DNA from: Promethearchaeota archaeon
GTDB lineage: Archaea; Asgardarchaeota; Thorarchaeia; Thorarchaeales; Thorarchaeaceae
Reading direction: 5' to 3'
DNA length: 12,419 nt
Assembly: GCA_027031765.1 (NCBI GenBank)
Contig: JALVPN010000130.1
Location: 1 to 12,419, forward strand
The translations under genes were made by a program, and so were the position numbers. Of the stretch, positions 2,653 through 12,419 are shown one piece after another (position 1 is the first letter of the stretch; the number at the start of each line of letters is the position of its first letter). The notes under the pieces are model-generated. The model made no database searches. It was given only the letters and a program-made list of their open reading frames with translations, and was not told where the DNA came from.

Positions 2653-2661
2653 CTTAATTAT
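2653..2661 (-). promoter_or_regulatory. Putative TATA box for the permease/ATPase operon
   Basis: Minus strand reads CATAATTAAG, an AT-rich island about 50 nt upstream of the TTG at 2606 in a GC-rich background. Confidence 0.5.
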
Positions 2662-2782
2662 GTTTGGTGGTCATTGCTGCTCCAAGCCCGTCGCAATCCG
2701 GTGGGCTAGGTCATCCCGGGTAGTCTGTGGTACCGAGCTGTCATCTTTGCGCCTGTCAGACCACGGTTCTGGACTCCCAGGT

Positions 2783-2950
2783 TCATGCGATGTTCGTCGT
2801 GGGTATCCCGTCGACCCAGAGCTCTCTCCTCAGCAGATCCCTTATGGCAACCCTGATGGCCTCGCTCCGGTTCGGATAGAGCCCACGTGCAACGAGCTCG
2901 TCAATTGCACTGATGTAGACCTCACTCATTTTCACTGTTACGATCCGCAT
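2783..2950 (-). CDS. Ribbon-helix-helix (CopG/CdrS-like) transcription regulator, 55 aa; not in ORF track
   Basis: Hand translation: MRIVTVKMSEVYISAIDELVARGLYPNRSEAIRVAIRDLLRRELWVDGIPTTNIA*. Alternating N-terminal beta strand (RIVTVK), helix, G.YPNRSEAIR turn and second helix are typical of RHH/CdrS. GGGAGG SD 10 nt upstream; TTATTA about 45 nt upstream. Confidence 0.9.
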   Translation of the reverse strand: MRIVTVKMSEVYISAIDELVARGLYPNRSEAIRVAIRDLLRRELWVDGIPTTNIA

Positions 2951-3055
2951 CTCTCGTTTTCCTCCCGGCGTCCTGCTCCACCATGGGGCCGTCTAATAAG
3001 GCCTCCCCTACGACCAGTATGTCCCGGGTGTTACGCGCCATCCTCCTCATAGTCG

Positions 3056-3095
3056 ACAACACAACACAACACAACACAACACAACACACCACACC
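3056..3095 (+). repeat. Pentanucleotide microsatellite (ACAAC)6 followed by (ACACC)2
   Basis: Read directly at 3056-3085 and 3086-3095, in the divergent intergenic region between the RHH gene and the GTPase. Confidence 0.95.
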
Positions 3096-3157
3096 CGCCA
3101 TGATGATGTGTGTTCTCTTATCTGCCACCTGTGGCTGCGCTCCCGACCGAATCCGCT

Positions 3158-3174
3158 GCGAAAAAGGCTATATG
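3158..3174 (+). promoter_or_regulatory. Putative BRE/TATA promoter of the small GTPase gene
   Basis: GCGAAAAAGGCTATATG: purine-rich BRE-like tract directly followed by TATAT, about 110 nt upstream of the likely start. Confidence 0.5.
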
Positions 3175-3281
3175 TTGTGGAGAACTCGAATCTAGTACTC
3201 AGCGGTCATGAGCAGTTCCAGCATCATACCCCTGGGAGCCACCATGGAACAAAGACAGAACAGTACTCAGCGAGGGTCCCT

Positions 3282-3821
3282 GTGTTGGCAGAACAAGACT
3301 TCACTTACATGCGCAAGGTCGTGATGATTGGTGCTGGGGGGAGTGGCAAGACTGCACTTGTCAACCGCTTTCTGACCAACAGGTTTACGGAAGACTACAT
3401 CATGACGATTGGCTCACAGTTTGCAGTCAAGACCGTGCCCGCCATTGATGAGAACGGCTCCGAGGTGATGGTAAAGCTCTTGGTCTGGGATCTCGCAGGC
3501 CAGCAGCGTTTTGACTTCATACGTACGAGCTACTACCAGGGCGCAAAGGGCGCCCTCCTCGTCTTTGACACGACACGCAAGAGCACATTCGTGGAGCTCC
3601 CCCGCTGGCTCGAAGAGATTGATGGTGCCCTAGGTGTGCGGGTACCAATCCTCCTCCTCGCCAACAAGGTCGACCTCGTCGACGAGCGGGTCATTGATGC
3701 TGAGATGGGGCGGCGCTTCGTGGCGGAGAACAATCTTGAGGGCTACCTCGAGACCAGTGCGCTCACAGGCCAGAACGTTGAGGAGGCCTTCAGGATGCTC
3801 GCCCAGGCCAGCATCCGGTAA
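3282..3821 (+). CDS. Rab-like small GTPase (Ras superfamily)
   Basis: G1 GAGGSGKT, switch I YIMTIGSQF, G3 WDLAGQQRF, YYQGAKG, LVFDTT, G4 NKVD, G5 ETSAL. The ORF track start at 3108 looks over-extended; likely start is GTG 3282 or TTG 3285 (GAGGG upstream), with ATG 3309 as an alternative. Confidence 0.93.
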   Translation: MLAEQDFTYMRKVVMIGAGGSGKTALVNRFLTNRFTEDYIMTIGSQFAVKTVPAIDENGSEVMVKLLVWDLAGQQRFDFIRTSYYQGAKGALLVFDTTRKSTFVELPRWLEEIDGALGVRVPILLLANKVDLVDERVIDAEMGRRFVAENNLEGYLETSALTGQNVEEAFRMLAQASIR

Positions 3822-10040: not shown

Positions 10041-10330
10041 TCCAGTTCACCCCTATAGGATATGTTGACCTACGATGGTCAAGTGGTGGATTTAAGTCTT
10101 GTTGAATGTGCGCCGCCCGCACACCCGACGTGGTGCGTGCCATCGTGGTCTATTGGTGGTCTTGTCTGAGATGTTGAGGGCTGCACCCCGTCAGTCCCCC
10201 ATGAGCAGAGTGAGATGTGCTGGCTAGGGCACTCATAGTGGGCCAGCGAGGCCGTGTGCCCCACCATGATGCCTGCGGAGAGCAAAGACATAAAGGGGAT
10301 GGAGACTGGGGGCCTCTGGTGGTCGACTAC

Positions 10331-10972
10331 TTGGCGAGCACGGACAGTCCTCCCAAGCGCGGTATGCTGGTTGTCTTCGAGGGTATTGACGGTGCCGGGA
10401 AGACCACGGTCTGCAACATACTGGCAGAACGGCTCAGAGGGGCCGGTCATGATGTTGTGGTGCTCCGAGAGCCGACGAAAGAGAGCCCGTGGGGACGGGA
10501 GATAATCGAGCGCTCGCCGTGGGGTGAGCTCACGCCCGAAGAGGAGCTGCAGCTGTTCATGCGCGACCGCCGGTGGAACGTGGAGAACCGTATCCTGCCC
10601 GCACTGGGAGAGGGAAAGGTCGTACTGCTTGACCGGTACTTCTTTGCTACCGGGGCCTACCAGAGTGTCAGCACCAAGGTCTCATGGGCAGAAATACTCA
10701 GGATGAACCGTGAGGAGCTCCATGCGCCAGACCCGGACATTGTCTTCCTGCTCGATGTGCCAGTCCAAGTGGGCTTGGAGCGTGCGGTTTCGCGGAAGGG
10801 GGCGACGAACATCCAGTTCGAACGACCGGAGCGCCTTGTGCGGGTGCGGCAGGTGTACCTTGAGATGGCCCGTGAGTACAGTGACTGCTTCCGCGTGGTC
10901 GATGCCACCCGTCCCATTGATGCCGTAGTGGACGAGGTCTTTGATGTCCTCATGGGGCTCATGGGCCAATGA
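10331..10972 (+). CDS. tmk: Thymidylate (dTMP) kinase
   Basis: VVFEGIDGAGKTT P-loop, REP, LLDRY, YQ, PD.VFLLD. The ORF track start at 10217 looks over-extended; TTG 10331 or ATG 10364 is more plausible. Confidence 0.95.
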   Translation: MASTDSPPKRGMLVVFEGIDGAGKTTVCNILAERLRGAGHDVVVLREPTKESPWGREIIERSPWGELTPEEELQLFMRDRRWNVENRILPALGEGKVVLLDRYFFATGAYQSVSTKVSWAEILRMNREELHAPDPDIVFLLDVPVQVGLERAVSRKGATNIQFERPERLVRVRQVYLEMAREYSDCFRVVDATRPIDAVVDEVFDVLMGLMGQ

Positions 10973-10977
10973 TATCA

Positions 10978-10987
10978 CATATATATG
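10978..10987 (+). promoter_or_regulatory. Putative TATA element (CATATATATG) upstream of the longin-like pair
   Basis: AT-rich palindrome immediately after the tmk stop, about 130 nt before ATG 11116. Confidence 0.4.
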
Positions 10988-11115
10988 CACAAGCGGCCCC
11001 ATTGTTATCGTATTACTGGTCACCCAACAGAGGCGGCCAGCCCATCCCGAATGGTGGCACATTGCCGGCTACACCCGGACTGGACATGACCACCACACCT
11101 TGGAGGGAGTCCCCA

Positions 11116-11520
11116 ATGTCTGTTGCACTGCTCGTGACTGAATTCGAGCCGTCTGTGGGTGCCGTCCTGAAGGCGAAGGCACCCCGCGACTTTGCAGATG
11201 AATACCATGGCGGCCTGATGGCCGAGATAATGCGCGTCTTCGCATTCCATGCGATGGGGGAGGCCTTGGACGAGTCAGCAGTCTTCTCTGCACGCATTGG
11301 CGGTAGAGAGTACTACCTAGCGTCCTACTATACGACCCCGAATGGGACAGGCCCCTATTGCATAATGCTCCTTGTGGAGCCCTCTGAAGACCCGAGGACA
11401 TACCTGTCAGCCTTGAGGTCTGTGGCACCCCGGCTGGTGGATGCTGTCTGTTCGCTGTCCACCAGTGAGATGCACGATGAAGTGGAGAGGGCCTACCAGG
11501 ACATTGTCGCACAGGCGTGA
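11116..11520 (+). CDS. Stand-alone longin/uDENN-like domain protein, 134 aa
   Basis: ATG 11116 has GGAGG 9 nt upstream and aligns with the start of the paralogous domain downstream, so the track start at 10969 looks too long. N-terminal hairpin LLVTEFEPSVGAVLK resembles the F[DH]xxxGP beta1-beta2 motif of uDENN/NPRL2-type longins. Strand-strand-helix order is consistent with longin (YYLASYY, YCIMLLV, then two helices). Confidence 0.6.
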   Translation: MSVALLVTEFEPSVGAVLKAKAPRDFADEYHGGLMAEIMRVFAFHAMGEALDESAVFSARIGGREYYLASYYTTPNGTGPYCIMLLVEPSEDPRTYLSALRSVAPRLVDAVCSLSTSEMHDEVERAYQDIVAQA

Positions 11521-11737
11521 CCCGGGGGCCGTCGCACTGGAGGGGCCTGACGCCCGGGGCCGTGATGTGGGCCCGGATGTGTGTCAGCCCTCTGCTGCTG
11601 CTCGTGGCCCCTTTCACAGTCTAGTTGCGGAGGGTCTAGTGCGAAGGTTTTTTAGTCCCCCGACAGTTTGGCCTGTTTAGACACCACTCAAGCCCTCTCC
11701 AGGCGAAAGACGTCAACTGTCGCCGCCTGCCACGTGA

Positions 11738-12419
11738 ATGACGACTGTGTCTGCGGAGGAATCTATCATTCCTGTTGCAATGCTCCTGATTGACTGGGAT
11801 AGCAAGATTGGTGCGGTCCTCAAGGCCAAGGTGCCTGCCAACTTTGCAGACGAGTACCAGGCAGACCTGAACACCGAGATTATGCGGATTTTCACATCGC
11901 ATGCCATGGGTGATGCAGTCGCTGGGTTCGCGACACTCACAGTCCGCATTGGTACTCAGGACTACTCTGTGGCCTCCTACTATACCGGACAGGTCCGAGA
12001 GGAAGAGCAGTACTGTATCTCCCTCCTACTAGAGCCGTCCGAAGACCCAAAGGCGTACGAGGCCGCTGTCACGTCCGTAGTCGGTCCTCTGGTCAATGCC
12101 GTCGCCTCCATGACAGATGCCGAGCTACAGGAAGAGCTGGAGACCACGTACCGCCGTATCATCCGCCTGGCAGGGATGACCGACGAGTCCAAGCTTGCCA
12201 GACTCTTCGCCGATGAGGTGTCCCGTGCGGTGTTCCCAAAACTGTGGAAGGGCGGCATCACGAAGGAGGCGCTTGAGGAGTGGCTCAAGATGGTCACTGG
12301 CCTCCCGAGCATAAGCGTCGACTCGGTCCTCGCACCGTTCGAGGAGCTCGGGCTGATTAAGACGGAGTGGGTCGACGAGATTGGCCGCACATGCGTCTTC
12401 CTGATAAAGGATCTTGAGG
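11738..12419 (+). CDS. Longin/uDENN-like domain + winged-helix protein, partial (runs off window); not in ORF track
   Basis: Hand translation, open for 227 codons to the edge: MTTVSAEESIIPVAMLLIDWDSKIGAVLKAKVPANFADEY...YCISLLLEPSEDPKAY...GITKEALEEWLKMVTGLPSISVDSVLAPFEELGLIKTEWVDEIGRTCVFLIKDLE. The N-terminal part is a clear paralog of 11116-11520. Confidence 0.8.
   Translation, partial: MTTVSAEESIIPVAMLLIDWDSKIGAVLKAKVPANFADEYQADLNTEIMRIFTSHAMGDAVAGFATLTVRIGTQDYSVASYYTGQVREEEQYCISLLLEPSEDPKAYEAAVTSVVGPLVNAVASMTDAELQEELETTYRRIIRLAGMTDESKLARLFADEVSRAVFPKLWKGGITKEALEEWLKMVTGLPSISVDSVLAPFEELGLIKTEWVDEIGRTCVFLIKDLE

Follow-up and report, generated by a model that had tools for sequence, protein, structure and literature searches.

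A stand-alone longin duplicate next to a longin and winged-helix gene in a Thorarchaeial genome

Two neighbouring genes, here called A and B, lie at the 3' end of contig JALVPN010000130.1 of a Promethearchaeota archaeon (GenBank assembly GCA_027031765.1). The window, i.e. the whole stretch of DNA that was analysed, is this complete contig of 12,419 nucleotides (C130), which is part of a 2.95-Mb, 95%-complete metagenome-assembled genome (MAG), and position 12419 is therefore the contig end. Close homologs of the encoded proteins carry Thorarchaeota (Asgard) annotation. Gene A (11116-11520, plus strand) starts with ATG and encodes 134 amino acids (aa), a stand-alone longin domain that is a truncated and fast-evolving duplicate of the N-terminal domain of B. 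Gene B is present with its 5' part (11738-12418, plus strand, 227 codons) and is open at the contig end. Its longin domain covers approximately 11777-12172, and its first winged helix begins at approximately 12182.

Alignment of A and B with BLASTP gave 62 identities over 130 positions (48%), 68% positives and an E-value of 2e-41. Residues 3-131 of A match residues 13-142 of B with a single gap of 1 residue. Over 134 aligned codons the copies share 60% of their nucleotides, with an identity of 0.69, 0.70 and 0.40 at codon positions 1, 2 and 3, respectively, a pattern that means true coding paralogy and not chance. An original prediction, made from the sequence alone, had described the two genes as tandem paralogs; this was confirmed with the coordinates it gave, its hand count of roughly 45% identity being slightly low, and the shared blocks it listed (GAVLKAK, FADEY, EIMR.F..HAMG, RIG, ASYYT and YCI.LL.EPSEDP) are all present in the BLASTP alignment. 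In the contig of an independent assembler, made from the same sequencing run, the sequence of A and B is identical and has a depth of 13.9.

An in-frame ATG at 10969 opens a 183-aa open reading frame (ORF, 10969-11520) and would give A an N-terminal extension of 49 codons (10969-11115, plus strand). This ATG overlaps the stop codon of the preceding thymidylate kinase gene, tmk (ATGA, 10969-10972), as is typical of translationally coupled genes. The extension, Pro/Gly-rich and without homolog, probably does not belong to the translated A protein, since the ATG at 11116 is the exact point from which A aligns with B and with the whole family. Furthermore, a Shine-Dalgarno-like GGAGGG at 11102-11107, located 8 nt before this ATG, favours 11116 as the start of A. 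For B, the Met start of the orthologs ('MP.A...') aligns with an ATT codon at 11768-11770, and the frame opens 10 codons earlier at the ATG at 11738. B here has either a short N-terminal extension or a non-canonical start codon.

Recovery of the rest of gene B, proposed earlier as a check, succeeded in part. The last 49 residues were located on contig C90 of the same genome (positions 1-150), but a gap of approximately 108 codons remains between C130 and C90. Base 12419, inside gene B, is exactly where the contigs of both assemblies of this sequencing run end, that of the MAG and that of Logan (2,978 bp), and the break could be caused by a repeat, strain variation or a drop in coverage.

All 24 sampled genomes of the same family contain orthologs of B with 81-84% identity, and weaker relatives occur across the phylum. 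Full-length orthologs have approximately 379-385 aa. An exhaustive phmmer search with one of these returned 206 cluster representatives at E <= 1e-3, A being among them with 3.4e-28. Two further full-length paralogs are encoded in the genome itself, on contigs C91 (388 aa) and C216 (378 aa).

The fold of B was read from an AlphaFold model of the full-length ortholog from genome G004, which is 83% identical to B and was modelled on a 67-sequence alignment (pLDDT 93.6, pTM 0.88). The model consists of a longin domain (residues 9-140), two three-stranded winged helices (144-226 and 262-346) and two terminal helices. DSSP assigned E9-16, E20-27, H33-51, E58-66, E69-77, E87-93, H99-119 and H122-140 to the first domain, which is the longin topology. 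That B continues into a winged-helix region had been suggested from the incomplete gene; the full-length ortholog has two winged helices, and the window holds only the first of them.

Structural comparison was carried out with VIA-align against 48,161 PDB representatives, a search with a typical background of Z 7-8. The longin domain of the ortholog matched 8yqg_B (Z 13.4, rmsd 2.7 A, 132 aligned positions), 8fw5_B, a GATOR1 chain of NPRL2 size (Z 12.1, rmsd 2.6, 127 aligned), 8adl_S of the SEA complex (Z 11.2), FLCN (6nzd_H, Z 10.4) and the uDENN domain of DENND1A (6ekk_A, Z 10.3). The longins of TRAPP, VAMP7, Sec22, sigma-adaptin and Mon1/Ccz1 scored Z 8.6-10.4, and the second winged helix matched ArsR/SmtB repressors with Z of approximately 9. 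Foldseek with the whole ortholog chain retrieved GATOR1 chains of NPRL2 size (probability 0.95-0.99) together with SEA and FLCN chains, all with a low TM of 0.17-0.28. Its alignments with 9o5d_D and 9o5a_H extend over 328-378 columns with a probability of 0.98-0.99 and a TM of only 0.26-0.28, while the VIA-align rows for these chains cover the longin only.

For A, B and the full-length ortholog, Pfam and NCBIfam yielded only sub-threshold noise and no family match. Against PDB sequences, both phmmer with the ortholog and a search with the family profile gave spurious matches only (protein A repeats, through an 'EEQR.A' helix). The link to the eukaryotic longins of GTPase-activating proteins (GAPs) is therefore one of structure and motifs only.

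The most conserved feature of the family is a W-D-x-x-x-G turn between strand 1 and strand 2, followed by a Pro after strand 2. Of 172 family N-domains, 155 have the W, 143 the D and 163 the G; the motif Gly is followed by A 73 times, by V 23 times, by T 19 times and by P only 16 times. The corresponding residues of B are W20-D21, G25-A26 and P33, in addition to R70 (in 'RIG') and R87 in the loop between strands 4 and 5. This loop reads 'QVREEEQ' in B, and a loop Arg is present in 76 of the 172 family members. C9orf72 carries W33-D34...G38-P39 at the same place and with the same spacing as the WDxxxG of the family, and a 'GP motif' at the loop end before strand 2 has been described for FLCN, NPRL2, SMCR8, C9orf72 and a class of Asgard longins (PMC12290439). 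The paralog on C91 (L004, 1501-2667) has a strict W-D...G-P.

Asgard archaea have a conserved protein of approximately 380 aa, of which B is the Thorarchaeial ortholog; as judged from the model, it consists of a longin of the NPRL2/FLCN/C9orf72 'GAP-longin' type, two winged helices and a short helical tail. An 'NPRL2-like' family with a longin and a C-terminal domain has been reported in Thorarchaeota by Liu et al. (bioRxiv 10.1101/2020.10.19.343400, later Nature 2021), and GAP-type Asgard longins were treated in Traffic 2025 (PMC12290439). By lineage, architecture and fold, B very probably belongs to this published set. The locus had been put forward as a candidate for a novel system, a claim that falls with these two publications. 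B belongs to a known family, and what the locus adds is A, an extra longin-only copy.

The AlphaFold2 model of A has a pLDDT of 93.6 and a complete longin topology (DSSP: E2-11, E15-22, H28-46, E54-61, E64-73, E81-87, H93-113 and H116-133); the underlying alignment is made of relatives and is dominated by family sequences. A longin fold had been proposed for both proteins, and both models agree with it. Foldseek with A gave SEA/GATOR1, DENND1A and 8yqg as top matches, with probabilities up to 1.0 and an E-value of only approximately 3e-3. A ends after the second C-terminal helix of the longin and has none of the two winged helices. In protein-language-model features, the nearest Asgard clusters of A are two Atlas longin clusters of approximately 141 and 154 aa, holding 94 and 86 members, respectively, and the nearest eukaryotic ones are clusters of C9orf72, NPR2, LST7 and NPRL3. 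PF06218 (NPR2) is found on 19% of the members of the nearest Atlas cluster, which is the sole link to NPR2 through Pfam.

The family motif is partly kept in A. G15 (followed by A16) and P23 are retained, as is R60 in 'RIG', but F10-E11 replaces the W-D of the family. The loop between strands 4 and 5 (TPNGTGP, residues 74-80) is without Arg, and the conserved Gly after the fourth strand is replaced.

In a tree of 172 N-domain sequences, A is placed within the Thorarchaeial B clade with a Shimodaira-Hasegawa approximate likelihood ratio test (SH-aLRT) support of 100, and in a tree of 41 sequences the clade containing A is supported with 100/100. A also carries three insertions that mark the Thorarchaeial B clade. 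The nesting and the common insertions together indicate that A arose from a B-type gene within this lineage, and the local duplication that had been proposed is thereby well founded. In the 172-sequence tree the branch leading to A has a length of 0.88 and that of B 0.12, the former being more than 7 times longer. The time of the duplication is less clear from the trees. In an approximately unbiased (AU) test neither A as sister to its own B (p-AU 0.585) nor A outside the B clade of the family (0.555) was rejected. The synonymous divergence (dS) between A and its own B is 1.45-1.73, and most comparisons with other orthologs are saturated. A duplication after the split of the genera fits these sequence data only loosely.

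Recurrence of the pair in other Asgard genomes had been suggested as a check. No A-like match was found in the 24 genomes of the same family, and no A-like ORF between tmk and B in 19 orthologous loci. A word-based search of 5.8 billion proteins, restricted to near lengths, returned only A itself; the method needs common 5-mers, and its result is not proof of uniqueness. The sequencing runs holding the stretch comprise one DNA run, from a hydrothermal vent metagenome that is probably its source, and no RNA run is listed. Because A is seen in one genome only and orthologs of B occur without A in 24 of 24 genomes and 19 of 19 loci, A is, on the present sequences, a late and lineage-specific add-on, and at most an analogy for the origin of GATOR1/DENN-type regulators.

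The original prediction went further and regarded the pair as a possible snapshot of how such regulators arose. In a strong form of this idea the pair would be an archaeal longin heterodimer of ancestral type, and two observations recall such a pair. B keeps W-D and the loop Arg and A has neither, an asymmetry reminiscent of NPRL2-NPRL3, and a tandem pair of a short and a long form occurs in a distant Asgard family too. The nesting of A in the Thorarchaeial B clade at 100/100 and its absence from the 24 sampled genomes of its own family speak against it, since a gene that is nested in this way and known from one genome is far younger than any event that matters for eukaryogenesis. Nor does A cluster in the tree with the short forms of other lineages. 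We consider an ancestral pair extremely improbable.

The tandem of the distant Asgard family is that of G036 (contig C1, locus L028, 2348-4178, minus strand), where a 160-aa stand-alone longin lies directly upstream of a 362-aa full-length paralog. The short form has W-D...G-P and the loop Arg, and its full-length neighbour has G-T at the Gly-Pro position; an exact-sequence look-up of the short protein gave no match on record. Stand-alone short forms away from a long paralog are found in G026, beside a RecA/KaiC-like gene, and as protein P0165, beside unrelated genes. The forms of G036 and G026 are placed on long branches elsewhere in the tree, which fits independent origins of the short forms in different lineages without proving them. 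Given these forms and the Atlas clusters, a stand-alone longin is not new as such.

Selection on A was estimated from the A-B pair. With a nonsynonymous divergence (dN) of 0.42 and the dS given above, omega is 0.29 (bootstrap 95% range 0.14-0.47), a value that is rough since dS is near saturation. When all dN and only half of dS were assigned to A, omega was >=1 in only 0.8% of the bootstraps, i.e. below 1 in 99.2%. A has retained 17 of 27 family-conserved residues and 25 of 65 variable ones (Fisher p 0.04).

One competing explanation for these data is that a partial tandem duplication left A behind without a function, with a frame that is open by chance and a sequence that is drifting without partner or role. 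It would account for the occurrence in one genome only, for the long branch, for the loss of the near-invariant W and D, the conserved G and the loop Arg, and for a family N-domain hidden Markov model (HMM) E-value of 2.4e-17 that is far weaker than the 4e-32 of B. In addition, when sequences were simulated neutrally to 48% identity, 7% of them were still without stop codon, so the integrity of the ORF is on its own weak evidence. On the other hand, the low omega holds even under the extreme assignment of dN, divergence at third codon positions far exceeds that at the other two, and only one indel of 1 codon is seen over 130 codons. The well-placed GGAGGG before the ATG, the preferential retention of family-conserved residues and the confident model of a full longin, though from an alignment dominated by relatives, argue in the same direction. 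A decaying, lineage-specific partial duplicate had been named beforehand as an outcome that would refute the functional interpretation; A is indeed lineage-specific and partial, but with omega at approximately 0.3 it does not have the look of neutral decay. The evidence is mixed, and we regard a functionless leftover as somewhat unlikely. On balance, these sequence comparisons suggest that A is under relaxed but real purifying selection and has a changed function.

The insertion point is bounded on both sides by conserved features. Upstream, tmk (10217-10972, plus strand; Pfam Thymidylate_kin, E 9.4e-41) is the conserved upstream neighbour of B and directly precedes the B ortholog in 18 of the 19 loci of relatives. 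The spacer between A and B (11521-11737, plus strand, 217 nt) contains no remnant of the winged-helix part of B, and tblastn of the full-length ortholog against it gave nothing better than E 0.8. Within this spacer, a 33-nt element with a T-rich box at its end (11625-11657, plus strand) was found by blastn also upstream of B in loci L006, L007, L010 and L020. The element has 85-95% identity over 21-33 nt, is positioned 60-100 nt upstream of the B orthologs in other genera and is conserved although synonymous sites are saturated, which makes it a candidate promoter or 5'-untranslated region (5'-UTR) element of B. This is probably B's own promoter region. As the element is still in place, A appears to have been inserted between tmk and the promoter region of B.

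Searching for duplicated promoters, target-site repeats or inverted repeats around A returned only the coding homology of A and B and short chance repeats. A scan for sigma-70 promoters and intrinsic terminators, a method unsuited to archaea, found nothing, and Rfam gave no match at gathering thresholds on the window and C90.

On C90, the gene of a longin-fused Arf-like GTPase (L032, 1779-2999) starts approximately 1.6 kb beyond the end of B. The protein has a longin-like N-domain, a G domain (Pfam Arf, E 4.4e-21) and a long acidic tail. All 5 relatives tested have this GTPase gene downstream of B and in the same orientation; one of them belongs to another family of the order and has a gap of just 127 nt between B and the GTPase gene. 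In the 1.6-kb spacer on C90 no long conserved ORF was found, and blastn against the five relatives found no conserved DNA. In the distant Asgard genome G035, a longin-GTPase gene directly precedes the B ortholog. Mainly because of this conserved linkage, B most likely regulates or scaffolds the downstream Arf-like GTPase.

Longins of this class act as dimers, as in NPRL2-NPRL3, FLCN-FNIP and SMCR8-C9orf72 (PMC12290439), and 8yqg, the best structural match of B, was deposited as a dimer. For these reasons A is most simply seen as a partner or competitor. Our preferred reading, to which we give a probability of about one in two, is that A is a retained longin-only duplicate of B, acting as a non-catalytic partner or competitor that tunes B through longin pairing with B or with the neighbouring GTPase. 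It builds on what was directly established: that A and B are paralogs, their fold, where A stands in the tree, its restriction to one lineage, its signature of selection and the gene neighbourhood. What we infer beyond these is dimerisation, any activity as GAP or guanine nucleotide exchange factor (GEF), and any regulatory effect. Only the longin-coding part of B was duplicated and placed between tmk and the B promoter. A then diverged more than 7 times faster than B and lost W-D, the conserved Gly and the loop Arg, while keeping a foldable longin. This longin would pair with that of B, or with the longin of the neighbouring GTPase. The resulting dimer would be asymmetric, lacking one set of winged helices, one W-D turn and one candidate arginine, and A could tune B in the manner of NPRL3, FNIP and C9orf72 beside the catalytic longins of eukaryotes.

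Pairing was evaluated by complex prediction of A with residues 1-150 of B. The score was 0.49, against 0.20 for the best control, and the partner pLDDT was >=80; one of the three runs scored 0.01. The mark applied is reached by 58 of 80 solved complexes and by 2 of 110 mismatched pairs, and it is reached with a score <=0.60 by just 7 of the 80 solved complexes and by both mismatches. Solved longin dimers exist, so the pass may only reflect likeness to these. The archaeal longin heterodimer that had been proposed thus passed its interface check weakly, and the models lend some slight weight to the view that an A-B heterodimer is plausible.

A function of A without B was considered as well. A could pair with the longin of the GTPase or with the C91 and C216 paralogs, or act alone like the Asgard NPR2-like longins of approximately 140-155 aa. 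The downstream GTPase has a longin-like N-domain of its own, two more full-length paralogs are available in the genome, and stand-alone short forms without an adjoining long paralog exist (that of G026 and protein P0165), as do the two Atlas clusters with their 94 and 86 members. The complex run that scored 0.01 is also in line with such a function. However, A derives from B and sits directly upstream of it, and the median A+B score lies above all controls. Young paralogs usually retain the parental dimer interface, which counts against A working without B. We find a role apart from B unlikely.

A more specific version of the partnership is that an asymmetric A-B heterodimer, in which B provides the W-D turn and the loop Arg and A is non-catalytic, acts as GAP or GEF on the downstream Arf-like GTPase. 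An archaeal lineage would here have repeated, recently and on its own, the division into catalytic and non-catalytic longins known from NPRL2-NPRL3, FLCN-FNIP and SMCR8-C9orf72. We consider so detailed a parallel distinctly unlikely and give more credit to the general idea that A tunes B as partner or competitor.

Several results weigh against that general idea too. A is known from one genome and one sequencing run, and all sampled relatives manage without it, which means that A is not a core subunit. The estimate of omega suffers from the near-saturated dS, and the neutral simulation leaves a share of open frames. In A, 36 of the 72 positions that are invariant in Thorarchaeial B are altered, including the hallmarks N-terminal P (to S), W (to F), D (to E), G (to A), G (to T) and E (to L); these changes could equally mean loss of function. 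At a score like that of A+B, false passes outnumber true ones unless the pair was already probable beforehand. As for the class assignment, the published motif is G-P and both A and B have Gly-Ala instead, hmmscan to E 10 gave no match to NPR2 (PF06218), NPR3 (PF03666), Folliculin or DENN, and the family profile retrieved no NPRL2 or FLCN chain from the PDB sequences.

Compared with known systems, B resembles the Asgard NPRL2-like and GAP-type longins in having a longin with a small C-terminal module, a conserved loop motif before strand 2 and a structural likeness to the longins of NPRL2, FLCN and SMCR8. A truncated longin-only duplicate beside B is what differs, as none was found in Liu et al. 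or PMC12290439.

The pair NPRL2-NPRL3 (yeast Npr2-Npr3; part of GATOR1/SEACIT, the GAP for RagA/Gtr1) shares several features with the locus. B has the layout of a longin followed by winged-helix-like C-terminal domains, A and B are paralogs of which one has a candidate arginine and the other none, and the gene of B is linked to that of a small GTPase. Unlike in that system, the neighbouring GTPase is Arf-like and not Rag-like, and whereas NPRL3 has a C-terminal half, A is without the whole of it. We know of no DEPDC5 equivalent for the A-B locus. The catalytic arginine finger of NPRL2, Arg78, is presumably placed in the loop between strands 4 and 5, and R87 or R70 of B would be candidate counterparts.

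The dimeric longin domain of a Lokiarchaeial Roadblock-Longin protein (8yqg, PDB 2025), which is both the best structural match of the B longin and among the top Foldseek matches of A, demonstrates dimer formation by an Asgard longin of this type. It differs from B in having 5-8% sequence identity, an N-terminal roadblock fusion and no winged helices. DENN proteins (DENND1A/B) share the longin-like fold of their uDENN domain (Z 10.3 for B, Foldseek probability 1.0 for A), but B has two winged helices and helices after the longin, no core DENN or dDENN domain and no Pfam DENN match. The earlier description of the two proteins as 'uDENN-like' is thus true in the sense of longin-like, but does not extend to the rest of a DENN module.

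The B family is an Asgard 'eukaryotic signature' candidate for an ancestral small-GTPase regulator, a point already made in the literature, and the linkage of B to the GTPase gene makes the family biochemically testable. A adds a natural experiment, in which the longin alone was duplicated and diverged in one lineage and the single-gene state is kept in 24 sampled relatives. If A binds B, the locus would illustrate with what ease a homodimeric longin regulator turns into an asymmetric heterodimer, the form found in all three eukaryotic longin GAP complexes. If such an asymmetric pair is real, its parent state (the relatives without A) and its derived state can be compared at an early stage. 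Without binding to B, A would be no more than a young paralog of the ordinary kind.

Some further observations concern related genes. Within the window, a Rab/Ras-like small GTPase gene is located at 3108-3821 (Pfam Ras, E 7.4e-45), approximately 8 kb upstream of the longin pair. On C91, a gene at 2660-3628 overlaps the 3' end of the full-length paralog and encodes a secreted, Asn/Thr-rich protein of surface type. The locus in G035 (contig C29, L029, 2045-5690) consists of three co-directional genes, which encode a protein of 320 aa whose copy of the N-domain is very divergent, a 289-aa fusion of a longin and a small GTPase, and the B ortholog of 534 aa with a long Lys/Glu-rich C-terminal extension. 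Finally, seven giant proteins of 1,330-2,548 aa from some of the relatives (P0072, P0108, P0115, P0116, P0117, P0123 and P0152) carry the longin and winged-helix module at their C-terminus.

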